Source of the DNA: Escherichia coli
GTDB lineage: Bacteria > Pseudomonadota > Gammaproteobacteria > Enterobacterales > Enterobacteriaceae
DNA length: 54,484 nucleotides
Reading direction: 5' to 3' (one strand)
Assembly (NCBI RefSeq): GCF_003334355.1
Contig: NZ_QOWP01000027.1
Position 1 is the stretch's first letter. Each line of letters opens with the position of its first letter. The notes beneath the pieces are model-generated. The model had not been told where the DNA came from, ran no database searches, and saw only the letters and a list, made by a program, of their open reading frames with translations. A program made the position numbers and the translations under genes. Positions 1-50,372 of this stretch are shown piece by piece.

Positions 1-237
1 GAAGGTTGGGAAGATATAGAGGATTTTGGGGAAACACATCTCGATTTTTTGAAGCAATATGGTGATTTTGAAAATGGTATTCCTGTTCACGATACCATTG
101 CCAGAGTTGTATCCTGTATCAGTCCTGCAAAATTTCACGAGTGCTTTATTAACTGGATGCGTGACTGCCATTCATCAAATGACAAAGACGTCATCGCGAT
201 TGATGGAAAAGCACTTCCACACTCCTATGATAAAAGT
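1..237 (+). pseudogene. ISAs1-family (H-repeat-associated) transposase internal fragment, yafF-like remnant
   Basis: Frame +1 from the window edge reads ...[77 protein letters not shown], matching the middle of ISAs1-type transposases, then diverges and terminates; no N-terminus or C-terminal catalytic region present. Confidence 0.55.
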
Positions 238-302
238 GGTCGCAGGAGAGCGGGCTTTCGTAGTCTTCCCCGACTCTCCCCAGCCCTAAACACAACCCCC
301 AC

Positions 303-1073
303 TCACCGCAACCTAAACTCATCCGCATCCTGCCATGCCGGAAACTTTTCTCTATATTCCCGCAATGCCATCATCGACAGCTCCGCATCAATGCGCGTTG
401 CCTGATGCGCGTCGGCAGTAGCGATAATCTCGCCTTGTGGATTAATCACCCGGCTGTCACCGCGATAATGGCAGCCGTTGCCATCGCTGCCGACGCGATT
501 GCATCCCGCCACATACGCCTGATTCTCAATCGCGCGGGCCGTCAGCAATGCCTGCCAGTGCAGAGAGCGCGGAGCAGGCCAGTTGGCGACGTACAGGGCG
601 AGGTCATAATCGTTGAGATTGCGCGACCACACAGGAAAACGTAAGTCGTAGCACACCAGCGGCAAAATACGCCAGCCGCGCCATTCCACAATCACTCGCG
701 CATTGCCCGCTTTATAATGTAGATGCTCATCTGCCATGCGGAACAGATGACGCTTATCATAAAAATGTACCGTGCCGCCCGGCTCAACCAGCAAAAAGCG
801 GTTAACCGAACCAGACTCCGTTTGTAATGCAACACTGCCTGCAATCAGCGCATTGCACTGCTGCGCCTTAGCTGTCATCCAGTTCACTACGTCATCTTGT
901 GCTAGCGACGAAGCTGCCGCTTCCATGGCAAAGCCGCTGGTAAACATCTCCGGTAGAACGATCACATCGCGCCCGGTAATACCTTCCAGTTGACGATCAA
1001 AATGACGCAGGTTGGCAGGACCATCCATCCACACCAGTGGTTGCTGCAAAAGCGTAATCTTCAAACCAGGCAC
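303..1073 (-). CDS. yafV: C-N hydrolase (nitrilase superfamily) omega-amidase YafV
   Basis: 259-aa ORF with nitrilase-superfamily features (…LPEMFTSGF…, catalytic Cys context VCYDLRFP); probable GTG start at 1073, TTG at 1082 is the ORF-track start. Confidence 0.88.
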
Positions 1074-1226
1074 GGTGTACAACTCCTTTATGCGAAGGGT
1101 TTTATAACTTTAACACCTTATCAGGCAGTTGCCTTAGCGCAGAATAAATTGATAACAAATGCTGATATTGGAAATATCTGATTTGCAAATTATCGTGTTA
1201 TCGCCAGGCTTTAGGAGGTTAATAAC

Positions 1227-6844: not shown

Positions 6845-7123
6845 TTACCCAAAGAGCGCCGCGTGAGTTCCAGTTCTCTCAAATCGTAAAAGTTTATCGG
6901 TAAGTTTGTAAATCAGGATCCAGTCCGGTTCGACATGAGCATCGCGATAACCTTTCCATGAACCTTGCAGCGGGTGGTCTTTATAAACAGCTGGAAGCGG
7001 TAAAGCATTATTGATAAGAAGCGTCATAAGATATTTCAATTTATTCATATCCTTATGACGCTTTTGTGCAAGTTTTACATCCTTTGAAAATTGTCCCGAG
7101 TATTCAATATCCCTTTGAATCAT
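6845..7123 (-). CDS. yafQ: Type II toxin YafQ (RelE/ParE-fold mRNA interferase)
   Basis: 92-aa ORF directly downstream of dinJ with 2-nt gap; sequence MIQRDIEYSGQFSKDVKLAQKRHKDMNKL… typical of YafQ. Confidence 0.9.
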   Translation of the reverse strand: MIQRDIEYSGQFSKDVKLAQKRHKDMNKLKYLMTLLINNALPLPAVYKDHPLQGSWKGYRDAHVEPDWILIYKLTDKLLRFERTGTHAALFG

Positions 7124-7125
7124 AT

Positions 7126-7386
7126 TTAAATTCCTAATTTATCAAATAAATCATCGGCGTCTTTGGCCTTATGAACATCAACGCCAGCTTCGCTGTTTTT
7201 GATTGATTGAATGGTTAATTGATTAGGCTCGCGTAAATCAAACGGCAATGCCTTTTCACGCGCGACCTTTGTGAGGGTTATGCGAACCAGGTCAGAGATG
7301 GTCAGCCCCATCCCGGCCAGTACGTCCGCCGCCTGATTCTTCAGATCTTCATCGATTCGGGCGCGAACAAACGCGTTAGCAGCCAT
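7126..7386 (-). CDS. dinJ: Antitoxin DinJ
   Basis: 86-aa RHH-type antitoxin (MAANAFVRARIDEDLKNQAADVL…), ATG at 7386, LexA-box-like sequence upstream. Confidence 0.9.
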   Translation of the reverse strand: MAANAFVRARIDEDLKNQAADVLAGMGLTISDLVRITLTKVAREKALPFDLREPNQLTIQSIKNSEAGVDVHKAKDADDLFDKLGI

Positions 7387-7595: not shown

Positions 7596-8434
<839 letters not shown>

Positions 8435-8520: not shown

Positions 8521-9018
8521 ATGTCTGAATATCGTCGTTATTACATCAAGGGGGGAACCTGGTTTTTCACGGTGAATTTACGCCATCGTCGAAGCCAACT
8601 CTTGACCACCCAGTACCAGATGCTCCGTAACGCCATTATTAAAGTTAAGCGAGACAGGCCTTTTGAAATCAACGCCTGGGTCGTTTTGCCAGAGCATATG
8701 CATTGCATATGGACATTACCTGAAGGCGATGATGATTTTTCCTCTCGCTGGCGGGAAATTAAAAAGCAATTTACCCATGCTTGTGGATTGAAAAATATCT
8801 GGCAACCACGTTTTTGGGAGCACACCATCCGCAATACCAAAGATTATAGGCATCATGTTGATTATATTTATATAAATCCAGTAAAGCATGGTTGGGTAAA
8901 GCAAGTGAGTGATTGGCCATTCTCAACGTTCCATCGCGATGTCGCGCGAGGGTTATATCCCATCGATTGGGCGGGGGACGTAACGGATATAAATGCTGGC
9001 GAGCGTATCATTTTATAA
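8521..9018 (+). CDS. yafM: REP-associated tyrosine transposase (RAYT, IS200/IS605-like HUH)
   Basis: 165-aa ORF, HUH motif (…LPEHMHCIWTLP…) and C-terminal Tyr region (DYIYINPVKHGW); flanked on both sides by REP clusters; AGGAG RBS. Confidence 0.85.
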   Translation: MSEYRRYYIKGGTWFFTVNLRHRRSQLLTTQYQMLRNAIIKVKRDRPFEINAWVVLPEHMHCIWTLPEGDDDFSSRWREIKKQFTHACGLKNIWQPRFWEHTIRNTKDYRHHVDYIYINPVKHGWVKQVSDWPFSTFHRDVARGLYPIDWAGDVTDINAGERIIL

Positions 9019-11335: not shown

Positions 11336-12458
11336 CCAGTTTAAGCACCTCTTTGGGAATGGAAATATCTCTGTTCAGGGCCGGGCGCGGCTGTGCGCCC
11401 TCGCGCCAGTGTTTCATTTGCAGGACGTAGGTCAGAACGTGGGCGATGGCCCGGTAAAGCTGAAACGGAATTTGCTGATTCACCTGGGTGGTGTAGTAAA
11501 CCGAGCGCGCCAGCCGCGGGAACTCGACCACTTCCACCTGATTCTCAGCGGCGACCTGGCGAATATAGAGGGCGATTTCATCGGTGCCTTTCGCCACCAC
11601 AAACGGCGCGGCGGCGCGCGACTGGTCATACTGCAACGCCACGGCGTAGTGGGTCGGGTTGGTGATCACCACGTTGGCTTTCGGCACCACTTTGCGAATT
11701 TGCCCCATCGCCAGTTGCCGTTGCAGTCGCCGCACGCGCGCCTTCACTTCTGGCTTGCCTTCCTGGTTTTTATACTCTTCTTTCAGCTCCTGTTTGGTCA
11801 TCTTCAGCCCTTTGGTGAACAGGGCTTTCGCCAGCGGTACGTCGAGAAGCGCAAAGAAGATAAACAGGATGACAAAGTTGCGCATCACGCTGGCGTAGAG
11901 CGACAAACCCTCATTCATCGCCAGTTTGAACGGTAGCGCCTGCAGGCCGAGAAAGGCGGCAAAGTTATTGCGCAGGCTAATCCACAGCATCACCAGCACC
12001 ACTACCGACTTCACCGTCATCTTCCCTGTTTCCGCCAGATGCTCACTGGAAAACAGCCGCCCAATGCCTTTTAACGGGCTGATTTTGCTGAAATCCGGGA
12101 GGATTTTTTTCGGTAAGAATAGCCAGCCGCCGGGTACCAGCGAAGAGAGCAGCGCGGCGGCAGGCATCGGCAGCAGCGTGAGAATAAACTTGCCGAGAAT
12201 TAACAGGTGATGGCGCAGAAACTGACCGATCACTTCCGGGTTATTAATCTCCTGCGCATACTGATGCACGCTGATAAAACTCTCGCGCACAAAATCGGCA
12301 TACCACGGAAAACTACTGGAGATCACCACAAACGCCGCAAACAGGCTCGCCGCCAGCCCCATATCCTTCGAGCGCGGCAGTTGCCCCTCTTCACGCGCTT
12401 TACGCAGCTTTTGCGCCGAGGGTTTCTCTGTTTTTTCTTCGCTGCTGCTATCCGCCAT
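11319..12458 (-). CDS. lfhB: Flagellar export switch protein, FlhB homologue
   Basis: 379 aa; N-terminus MADSSSEEKTEKPSAQKLRKAREEGQLPRSKD and NPTH autocleavage motif (VVITNPTHYAVAL) diagnostic of FlhB; overlaps lfhA start by 17 nt. Confidence 0.93.
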   Translation of the reverse strand: MADSSSEEKTEKPSAQKLRKAREEGQLPRSKDMGLAASLFAAFVVISSSFPWYADFVRESFISVHQYAQEINNPEVIGQFLRHHLLILGKFILTLLPMPAAALLSSLVPGGWLFLPKKILPDFSKISPLKGIGRLFSSEHLAETGKMTVKSVVVLVMLWISLRNNFAAFLGLQALPFKLAMNEGLSLYASVMRNFVILFIFFALLDVPLAKALFTKGLKMTKQELKEEYKNQEGKPEVKARVRRLQRQLAMGQIRKVVPKANVVITNPTHYAVALQYDQSRAAAPFVVAKGTDEIALYIRQVAAENQVEVVEFPRLARSVYYTTQVNQQIPFQLYRAIAHVLTYVLQMKHWREGAQPRPALNRDISIPKEVLKLDGENN

Positions 12459-47139: not shown

Positions 47140-48195
47140 ATGCGTAAAATCATTCATGTGGATATGGACTGCTTTTTCGCCGCAGTGGAGATGCGCGACA
47201 ATCCCGCCCTGCGCGATATCCCTATTGCTATTGGCGGCAGCCGCGAACGTCGGGGGGTGATCAGCACCGCCAATTATCCCGCGCGTAAATTTGGCGTACG
47301 TAGCGCTATGCCGACAGGGATGGCGCTCAAATTATGCCCGCATCTCACCTTGCTTCCGGGGCGCTTTGACGCCTACAAAGAAGCCTCAAATCATATCCGC
47401 GAAATCTTCTCGCGCTACACCTCGCGTATTGAACCGTTGTCACTGGATGAGGCTTATCTCGACGTCACCGATAGCGTCCATTGCCACGGTTCTGCGACCC
47501 TCATCGCCCAGGAAATCCGCCAGACGATTTTCAACGAGCTGCAACTGACGGCGTCTGCGGGCGTGGCACCCGTAAAGTTTCTCGCCAAAATCGCCTCCGA
47601 CATGAATAAACCCAACGGCCAGTTTGTGATTACGCCGGCAGAAGTTCCGGCATTTTTACAAACCTTACCACTGGCAAAAATCCCCGGCGTCGGCAAAGTC
47701 TCGGCGGCAAAACTGGAAGCGATGGGGCTACGAACCTGCGGTGATGTACAAAAGTGTGATCTGGTGATGCTGCTTAAACGCTTTGGCAAATTTGGCCGCA
47801 TTTTGTGGGAGCGTAGTCAGGGGATTGACGAGCGCGACGTTAACAGCGAACGGTTGCGAAAATCCGTCGGCGTGGAACGCACGATGGCGGAAGATATCCA
47901 CCACTGGTCTGAATGTGAAGCGATTATCGAGCGGCTGTATCCGGAACTTGAACGCCGTCTGGCAAAGGTAAAACCTGATTTACTGATTGCCCGCCAGGGG
48001 GTGAAATTAAAGTTCGACGATTTTCAGCAAACCACTCAGGAGCACGTCTGGCCGCGGCTGAATAAAGCTGACTTAATCGCCACCGCGCGTAAAACCTGGG
48101 ATGAACGCCGCGGCGGGCGCGGTGTGCGACTGGTGGGGCTGCATGTGACGTTGCTTGATCCGCAAATGGAAAGACAACTGGTGCTGGGATTATGA
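47140..48195 (+). CDS. dinB: DNA polymerase IV (Y-family)
   Basis: 351 aa starting [22 protein letters not shown]… (Y-family catalytic DMDCFFA motif). Confidence 0.95.
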
Positions 48196-48246
48196 TGTAT
48201 ACTATTATGTCTATTCTGGTGTGCATTATTATGAGGGGATCACTGC

Positions 48247-48540
48247 ATGCATCGAATTCTCGCTGAAAAATCGGTCAATATTACTGAGTTACGTAAAAAC
48301 CCAGCTAAATACTTTATTGATCAACCGGTTGCGGTTCTTTCTAATAATCGCCCCGCAGGATATCTCTTAAGTGCCAGCGCATTCGAAGCGTTAATGGACA
48401 TGCTTGCTGAACAAGAGGAGAAAAAGCCCATAAAGGCGCGCTTCCGTCCAAGTGCTGCAAGATTAGAGGAAATTACACGCCGAGCTGAAAAATATCTTAA
48501 TGATATGACGGATGATGATTTCAATGACTTTAAGGAATAA
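48247..48540 (+). CDS. yafN: Antitoxin YafN (Phd/YefM family)
   Basis: 97-aa ORF immediately upstream of yafO in dinB operon. Confidence 0.88.
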   Translation: MHRILAEKSVNITELRKNPAKYFIDQPVAVLSNNRPAGYLLSASAFEALMDMLAEQEEKKPIKARFRPSAARLEEITRRAEKYLNDMTDDDFNDFKE

Positions 48541-48542
48541 GG

Positions 48543-48941
48543 ATGCGGGTATTCAAAACAAAACTTATTCGCCTGCAACTTACAGCAGAGGAACTTGATG
48601 CGTTAACGGCGGATTTTATTTCCTATAAGCGTGACGGTGTTTTGCCAGATATATTTGGTCGCGATGCACTCTACGACGACTCGTTTACCTGGCCATTAAT
48701 CAAATTTGAGCGAGTTGCTCATATTCATCTGGCAAATGTGAATAATCCATTTCCGCCACAGTTGCGCCAATTCAGCAGAACGAATGACGAAGCGCATTTG
48801 GTATATTGTCAGGGTGCGTTTGATGAGCAAGCATGGTTGCTCATTGCCATTCTGAAACCTGAACCTCATAAACAGGCTCGAGATAACAACCAAATGCATA
48901 AAATTGGGAAAATGGCAGAAGCGTTTCGCATGCGTTTTTGA
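48543..48941 (+). CDS. yafO: Toxin YafO (ribosome-dependent mRNA interferase)
   Basis: 132-aa ORF, 2 nt after yafN stop. Confidence 0.88.
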   Translation: MRVFKTKLIRLQLTAEELDALTADFISYKRDGVLPDIFGRDALYDDSFTWPLIKFERVAHIHLANVNNPFPPQLRQFSRTNDEAHLVYCQGAFDEQAWLLIAILKPEPHKQARDNNQMHKIGKMAEAFRMRF

Positions 48942-48950
48942 ATTTATATT

Positions 48951-49403
48951 ATGAATAACATACAAATAAGAGACTATCAGCCTGGCGATTTTCAGCAACT
49001 ATGCGCTATTTTCATTAGAGCGGTTACGATGATCTCCAGTCAGCATTATTCACCACAACAAATTGCCGCCTGGGCGCAGATTGACGAATCTCGCTGGAAG
49101 GAGAAACTCGCGAAATCACAAGTGCGGGTTGCCGTCATTAATGCACAACCGGTTGGTTTTATTACCTGCGTTGAACGTTATATCGATATGTTATTTGTTG
49201 ACCCTGAATACACCCGCCGCGGGGTTGCCTGCGCTTTGTTAAAACCTTTGATTAAGTCTGAATCCGAACTTACGGTGGACGCCAGCATAACCGCAAAACC
49301 CTTTTTTGAACGTTATGGTTTTCAGACAGTTAAGCAGCAGCGCGTTGAATGCCGGGGAACGTGGTTTACTAATTTTTATATGCGATATAAACCGCAATAT
49401 TAA
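48951..49403 (+). CDS. yafP: GNAT-family N-acetyltransferase YafP
   Basis: 150 aa with GNAT acetyl-CoA-binding signature (…RRGVACALLKPL…). Confidence 0.88.
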   Translation: MNNIQIRDYQPGDFQQLCAIFIRAVTMISSQHYSPQQIAAWAQIDESRWKEKLAKSQVRVAVINAQPVGFITCVERYIDMLFVDPEYTRRGVACALLKPLIKSESELTVDASITAKPFFERYGFQTVKQQRVECRGTWFTNFYMRYKPQY

Positions 49404-49636: not shown

Positions 49637-49903
49637 ATGGAATGGTACATGGGCAAATATATTCGTCCCTTATCCGATGCGGTATTTACCATCGCATCTG
49701 ATGACCTGTGGATCGAGAGTTTAGCGATCCAACAATTACACACCACGGCAAATTTACCCAACATGCAGCGCGTAGTGGGGATGCCAGATTTACACCCCGG
49801 ACGCGGCTACCCGATTGGCGCAGCGTTCTTCTCTGTTGGTCGTTTTTACCCGACAAGACGTCGCTGTAACGGTGCTGGAAACAGAAACGGGCCGCTACTC
49901 TGA
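49637..49903 (+). pseudogene. RtcB-family RNA ligase 5' fragment (ykfJ-like remnant)
   Basis: First about 66 residues match RtcB N-terminus including …[21 protein letters not shown]…; reading frame then degenerates and stops after 88 codons. Confidence 0.7.
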
Positions 49904-50372
49904 CACGCTGCGTTCGGCGCTGGTTTCTCTGGATGGCGATAACGCATGGGCATTAAGCGAAAGCTGGTGTGGCACTATTCAGTGGATTTGTCCGAGTCCG
50001 TATCGGCCTCATCATGGGCGCAAAAACTGGTTTCTGGGCATTGGGCGTTTTACCGCTGATGAGAAGGAACAATCGGATGCAATCCGTTATGAGACGCTGC
50101 GTTCGTCGGGGCCGGGCGGTCAACATGTCAATAAAACCGACTCGGCGGTACGCGCCACGCATCTGGCATCCGGTATTAGCGTGAAGGTTCAGTCAGAGCG
50201 CAGCCAGCATGCTAACAAACGGCTGGCGCGATTGCTGATTGCCTGGAAGCTGGAGCAGCAGCAACAGGAAAATAGCGCGGCGCTGAAATCGCAGCGGCGA
50301 ATGTTCCATCACCAGATTGAACGTGGCAACCCGCGACGGACATTTACAGGGATGGCTTTTATCGAAGGATAA
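49815..50372 (+). pseudogene. prfH: Peptide chain release factor homologue PrfH, 5'-truncated
   Basis: C-terminal GGQ domain present (…[26 protein letters not shown]…) but N-terminal part missing; no proper start context; overlaps RtcB fragment. Confidence 0.75.

Follow-up and report, generated by a model that had tools for sequence, protein, structure and literature searches.

At the left edge of the window (the whole 54,484-nt stretch of Escherichia coli DNA analyzed here) lies the 5′ part of an ISAs1/ISEc1 transposase gene, on the plus strand at positions 1–252 (CDS nt 124–375, codons 42–125) and cut by the window edge. It is joined to the 3′ terminus of an insertion sequence (IS) at 245–272 (+), which right-end comparison showed to consist of the last 19 nt of the transposase CDS and the right end of the element. 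The two parts share a deletion junction at 245–252 (+), placed by alignment to the ij001 copy and by motif positions, where GGAGAGCG is the sole remaining octamer. A non-IS spacer follows at 273–302, delimited by a four-sequence alignment and kept in every E. coli lineage compared (the window, B2 clone D i2, K-12 and GF3-3), and leads from the right end of the IS to the stop codon (303–305) of yafV, a gene for 2-oxoglutaramate amidase (WP_001118040.1) that is convergent with the relic. According to the RefSeq annotation of genomes identical over window positions 1–1100, yafV occupies 303–1073 on the minus strand (ORF 303–1082), and the earlier note was therefore right to place the fragment next to this gene; yafV itself is context, outside the relic, with ivy and fadE coming next. 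A mechanical ORF at 49–405 (+) from the ORF list was rejected as a gene: it is the frameshifted relic read on into the antisense strand of yafV, and its frame carries no ISAs1 homology past 252.

Several features elsewhere in the window were observed alongside. A complete-looking Flag-2 lateral flagellar cluster (flhA/lfhA through lafA, motA and lafU) spans ~9242–47069 between rayT and dinB, with coordinates transferred from the annotation of PSS-12, which is colinear with the window; K-12 keeps only remnants of this cluster. The rayT gene (REP-associated tyrosine transposase) lies at 8521–9018, and two toxin–antitoxin loci flank Flag-2, namely yafQ–dinJ (6845–7386) and the dinB–yafN–yafO–yafP operon (~47140–49403). 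Adjoining rtcB-family and prfH pseudogene fragments are found between yafP and pepD at ~49649–50372 (PSS-12 annotation). At the far end, positions 54301–54484 represent the outer end of an IS10/ISVsa5-like element of the IS4 family (CTGATGAATCCCCTAATGATTTTGG...), inserted in crl after ~nt 302; crl is uninterrupted in PSS-12 and is annotated next to ISVsa5 in several K-12 laboratory derivatives.

Frame +1 is open across positions 1–237, where 79 residues correspond to transposase residues 42–120 (including ...HSYDKS). These residues matched the NCBIfam model NF033564 ('ISAs1 family transposase') with 98 bits (E = 5.8e-28, profile positions 14–91 of 314), compared with a curated cutoff of 70 bits, and the 125-residue remnant in ATCC 8739 reached 122.9 bits against the same model and cutoff. 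Window residues 1–53 also matched positions 36–88 of the 88 in the Pfam model PF13808 (DDE_Tnp_1_assoc; E = 3.4e-17), the remaining part of this domain being found left of the window in relatives. The ISAs1-family matches of positions 1–237 are far above chance and confirm that an H-repeat-type transposase fragment of this family stands at the left edge. The fragment reaches a little beyond its proposed end at 237: the window matches the 5′ part of the gene at the DNA level as far as 252, encoding the C-terminal half of DDE_Tnp_1_assoc plus ~24 residues from the start of the DDE domain, and then matches the 3′ terminus of this IS as far as 272.

The sequence left of the window was read from relatives. 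Many complete E. coli chromosomes, among them that of ATCC 8739, match positions 1–1100 of the window with 100% identity, and over 25 kb the nearest complete genome is PSS-12 (NZ_AP027697.1), with 11 differences in 37 kb and no indels. In the relatives the ATG of the CDS lies 123 nt left of window position 1, corresponding to the first 41 codons, so the fragment is indeed incomplete at the window edge, as had been stated. Beyond the CDS start the sequence varies. PSS-12 has one relic with both ends, and ATCC 8739 has a tandem pair in which the relic is copy 2; immediately upstream is copy 1, which is full or nearly full length, carries a TAG at codon 44 and is a separate copy. The right end of copy 1 abuts copy 2 ~108 bp inside the element, leaving copy 2 without its left inverted repeat; in an ATCC 8739-type genome this boundary (...TCTTGCCTTG followed directly by GATCAAATACTCC) would fall ~158 nt upstream of window position 1. 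Still further upstream, ATCC 8739 has a sel1-repeat gene, an 'rhsG core protein with extension' fragment and other IS debris.

PSS-12 has an intact left end, with CAGGGAAAGATCA... starting at position 11734 of the locus (L003) and the right end at 12272, giving a relic of 539 bp (1290 minus 751). The aspV island of this genome (L003 10439–12272) has shrunk to tRNA-Asp (aspV), an IS1, ~290 bp and the 539-bp both-ended ISAs1 relic, in that order. The PSS-12 relic shows the variants of copy 1 in its 5′ part, among them the TAG stop at codon 44 (window position 8 is G, within a Trp codon, versus A, giving TAG, in PSS-12), and resembles copy 2 in its 3′ part, which identifies it as a product of homologous recombination between the tandem copies.

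The undeleted state of the element is preserved in two other genomes. At the exact site of the relic and with the same downstream flank, ij001 carries an intact 378-aa gene (WP_053285589.1), and ECL27977 carries a full-length copy with the same site and right-end/flank junction as ij001 (L007/L008 5035–6171). Alignment of the window to the ij001 copy yielded two blocks, one running to window position 244 (L007 5401) and the other starting at window position 245 (L007 6153), with 751 bp (CDS nt 376–1126) of the full-length syntenic copy absent from the window. In yhhI, the 8-bp direct repeat GGGGAGCG occurs at CDS positions 368–375 and 1119–1126. The ij001 copy has the same 5′ octamer as yhhI, and its 3′ octamer is GGAGAGCG, exactly as in the window. 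Such a short-direct-repeat footprint is classic for replication slippage or illegitimate recombination and, judging from the microhomology and anatomy of the junction, the deletion probably arose through one of these processes at the 8-bp repeat.

A simpler account would be a 3′ truncation, in which an adjacent deletion eliminated the right-hand part of the IS and left the remainder joined directly to yafV-flanking DNA. The protein match does end abruptly near residue 120–125, and RefSeq labels the gene 'missing C-terminus', both as expected from a truncation. Past the protein match, however, the window reads ...GATAAAAGTGGTCGCAGGAGAGCGGGCTTTCGTAGTCTTCCCCGACTC..., where GGAGAGCGGGCTTTCGTAGTCTTCCCCG represents the 3′ end of this IS; in intact copies the element finishes with ...GCGGGGAGCGGGCTTTCGTAATCTTGCCCTG. 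Window positions 245–272 match the terminal 28 bp of ISEc1-type elements, stop codon and right inverted repeat included, and the DNA past 272 is the flank that follows both the full-length ij001 copy and the C-terminal remnant of K-12. Because the right terminus is retained and the flank is shared, the right end was never lost, which refutes a simple truncation and leaves us assigning it a very low probability.

The position of this right end is well constrained. Three independent contexts (ISEc1 at rhsB, ATCC 8739 copy 1 and ij001) set it at ...TCTTGCCCTG, and the element termini are 5′-CAGGGAAAGATCA...TCTTGCCCTG-3′. The terminal inverted repeats (CAGGGAAAGATCATCAAAAG and CAGGGCAAGATTACGAAAG) are imperfect, with 3 mismatches and 1 gap over 20 columns in the comparison of ISEc1 left with right. 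Independent plasmid and chromosomal copies match L001 from 6552/6553 to 7839–7842 and have the same end point, and the ISEc1 copy downstream of rhsB in K-12 measures 1291 bp (L006 2234–3524). In the window, the right terminal inverted repeat is found at ~253–272 (CTTTCGTAGTCTTCCCCG), in sequence homologous to that of the ISEc1 right end; the terminus falls at 272 (...TCTTCCCCG), with 30 bp of non-IS DNA before the yafV stop codon. The left inverted repeat is outside the window; PSS-12 has it, whereas the deleted copy of ATCC 8739 does not.

As a consequence of the deletion, the first 375 nt of the gene run directly into the final 28 bp of the element in the wrong reading frame. Since 751 equals 3 × 250 + 1, the result is a +1 frameshift, and the old stop codon (TAG, 261–263) is now out of frame. 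The full-length syntenic protein has PF13808 at residues 8–94 and the DDE catalytic domain PF01609 at 102–343; residues 126–375 are deleted, comprising almost the whole catalytic domain, and the relic therefore cannot encode an active transposase. Because this domain is gone, we regard the remnant as dead rather than as capable of transposition, that is, as a relic of the ISAs1 family (ISEc1/H-repeat) and not a functional member. Extending the sequence leftwards, which had been proposed as a check, contributes no more than codons 1–41 in the relatives (PSS-12 also having its TAG stop) and reveals no intact gene; with the lethal lesion inside the window, no upstream sequence can make the gene intact. 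We are thus highly confident that positions 1–272 are the right-hand part of a dead ISEc1 copy, an Rhs-associated H-repeat of the ISAs1 family that was killed by a 751-bp internal deletion. The fragment had been described as decayed, which holds for its status as a pseudogene but is imprecise for an element that suffered one internal deletion and kept its right end.

We then considered the genomic setting of the element, for which relatives again provided the evidence outside the window. Upstream of yafV, ij001 and ECL27977 have an Rhs core, ydcD and two ISAs1 copies (one a pseudogene), which places the copy downstream of an Rhs core/extension and immunity-type ORFs, the location of an H-repeat of an Rhs element. 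Rhs fragments also occur upstream of the relic site in ATCC 8739 and GF3-3, and in PSS-12 the Rhs part is gone and IS1 abuts the relic. The relic thus appears to be the last H-repeat of an Rhs element filling the aspV–yafV interval. We take this site to be 'RhsG, min 5.3', a designation reportedly originating in an Rhs paper by Wang, Zhao and Hill (J. Bacteriol., 1998); the link to RhsG is also backed by the PGAP product annotated in ATCC 8739 ('rhsG core protein with extension') and by Table 6 of PMC3032704, which gives the interval (b0215–b0221) as an Rhs site for E. coli W.

These observations also qualify the view that the fragment records past IS activity next to yafV: it is an IS relic, but given the shared IS-end/flank junction and the Rhs-borne copy it need not reflect a local transposition. 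By eye, no direct repeat corresponding to an 8–10 bp target-site duplication was found in the flanks of the full-length ij001 copy (...GTTAAACA on the left and ACTCTCCCC... on the right) or of the PSS-12 relic (...CTCACCT and ACTCTCCCC...). For an old copy that sits among tandem, recombining Rhs sequences, such an absence is unsurprising and says little about membership.

Sequence divergence along the relic was strikingly uneven. Compared with K-12 yhhI in an ungapped alignment, positions 1–172 are 100% identical (0 mismatches), whereas positions 173–252 differ at 16 of 80 nt (20%), and B2 strains share most of the diverged patch, from ~187 to 252. This pattern suggests an old, diverged allele whose left part was homogenized through gene conversion with other dispersed H-repeats. 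Conversion would not reach as far as the deletion junction, at which homology runs out. The relic would then persist as neutral DNA that can still recombine homologously with other H-repeats and exchange sequence with them by gene conversion, a role that we propose because positions 1–172 are identical to the distant ISEc1 at rhsB and because PSS-12 has a recombinant of copies 1 and 2.

Across complete E. coli genomes, the deletion allele was detected in 970 of 5,426 (18%), across phylogroups and including B2 strains, where a genome was counted if one place covered at least 80% of window positions 1–330, which requires the junction. Every examined occurrence of the deletion junction sits at the yafV locus. 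Other counts were less informative: the 3,209 genomes with the undeleted 3′ part of the IS beside yafV are an upper bound only, since they include some two-piece joins, and the 3,443 genomes matching positions 1–1100 are ambiguous for the same reason. A probe for the junction between copies 1 and 2 matched 4,920 genomes at a coverage of at least 80% and did not discriminate tandem-copy from single-copy genomes, with pieces of single full-length IS copies joined as one place. B2 clone D i2 has the same deletion junction as the window, with further 5′ truncation and an internal stop, and GF3-3 retains only about the last 20 bp of the IS, directly after Rhs tips and a symE gene. The IS-end/flank junction is common to every E. 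coli lineage examined, which points to one ancient arrival followed by lineage-specific deletions as the simplest reading.

The anatomy of the relic and its disruption in relatives are the basis on which we consider it a probable neutral fossil, with no transposase and no function of its own. One alternative is that the truncated protein has been domesticated, such that its DDE_Tnp_1_assoc DNA-binding domain, expressed from the IS promoter, inhibits in trans or regulates other ISEc1 copies or antisense yafV. In other IS families, N-terminal fragments of the transposase act as inhibitors of transposition (IS1 InsA and IS911 OrfA), an analogy that would fit the 175-aa ORF with its own ATG that is open in ATCC 8739-type genomes and the perfect conservation of positions 1–172 relative to ISEc1. 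Yet this ORF is broken by the TAG at codon 44 in PSS-12, which has the same deletion, and in B2 clone D i2 it lacks its 5′ end and has an internal stop; in K-12 and GF3-3 the N-terminal part is wholly absent. The perfect identity of positions 1–172 is better explained by gene conversion. Nor did the surroundings of the relic show any sign of regulatory content: a scan of positions 1–1300 gave no terminator-like sites and a non-informative number of promoter-like sites (4 versus 1.6 expected), the minus-strand RNA downstream of yafV (215–305) had no special structure (z = −0.49), and positions 1–2000 had no Rfam match at E ≤ 1. On balance, we find domestication highly improbable.

A MITE-like, non-autonomous element, in which the 539-bp relic would be mobilized in trans by intact ISEc1 transposase, is the most improbable reading: both terminal inverted repeats are retained in PSS-12 and intact ISEc1 genes are present in E. 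coli, but all examined junctions are at yafV with no sign of spread, the deleted copy of ATCC 8739 lacks the first ~108 bp including the left inverted repeat, and H-repeats, though listed as IS elements, have never been observed to transpose (PMC3032704). Taking the bolder proposals together, there is only a slim chance that the surviving N-terminal DNA-binding-domain ORF is expressed as a trans-dominant inhibitor of ISEc1/H-repeat transposition or that the 539-bp form is a mobilizable MITE; the inhibitor, if real, would help explain why H-repeats are never seen moving.

Read as a dead H-repeat, the relic neatly illustrates both deletion at a short (8-bp) direct repeat and gene conversion among dispersed H-repeats. 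Its deletion junction is usable as a lineage marker, present in ~18% of complete E. coli genomes, and the relic marks the yafV-side boundary of the variable aspV–yafV island, an Rhs site. Otherwise it matters very little.

Finally, we compared the relic with known systems. It was already known, both as a RefSeq pseudogene and through yafF, its named counterpart in K-12. RefSeq/PGAP annotates this sequence at this locus as ECOLC_RS24770 in ATCC 8739 and AABK13_RS10015 in PSS-12 (pseudogene, 'ISAs1 family transposase; incomplete; missing C-terminus'); these entries do not record the internal deletion or the kept right end of the IS, and there is otherwise no substantive difference. In K-12 MG1655, yafF (b4503) adjoins yafV and shares with the relic an ancestral H-repeat copy, the IS right end and the flank. 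It keeps the C-terminal 189 bp and no N-terminal part, whereas the window keeps the N-terminal third and the last 28 bp, and the two alleles are products of different deletions. The full-length copy of ij001 and ECL27977 shares with the window its chromosomal site, right junction, GGAGAGCG variant of the 3′ repeat and TAG stop, but is undeleted and represents the parent state of the relic; its 378-aa gene has the same architecture as that of ISEc1. ISEc1 itself (H-rpt of RhsB; gene yhhI; ISAs1 family, 1291 bp) has a homologous right inverted repeat and is intact at rhsB. By comparison, the window copy has lost 751 bp with the DDE domain, carries a frameshift and differs by 20% over the 80 nt that precede the junction.
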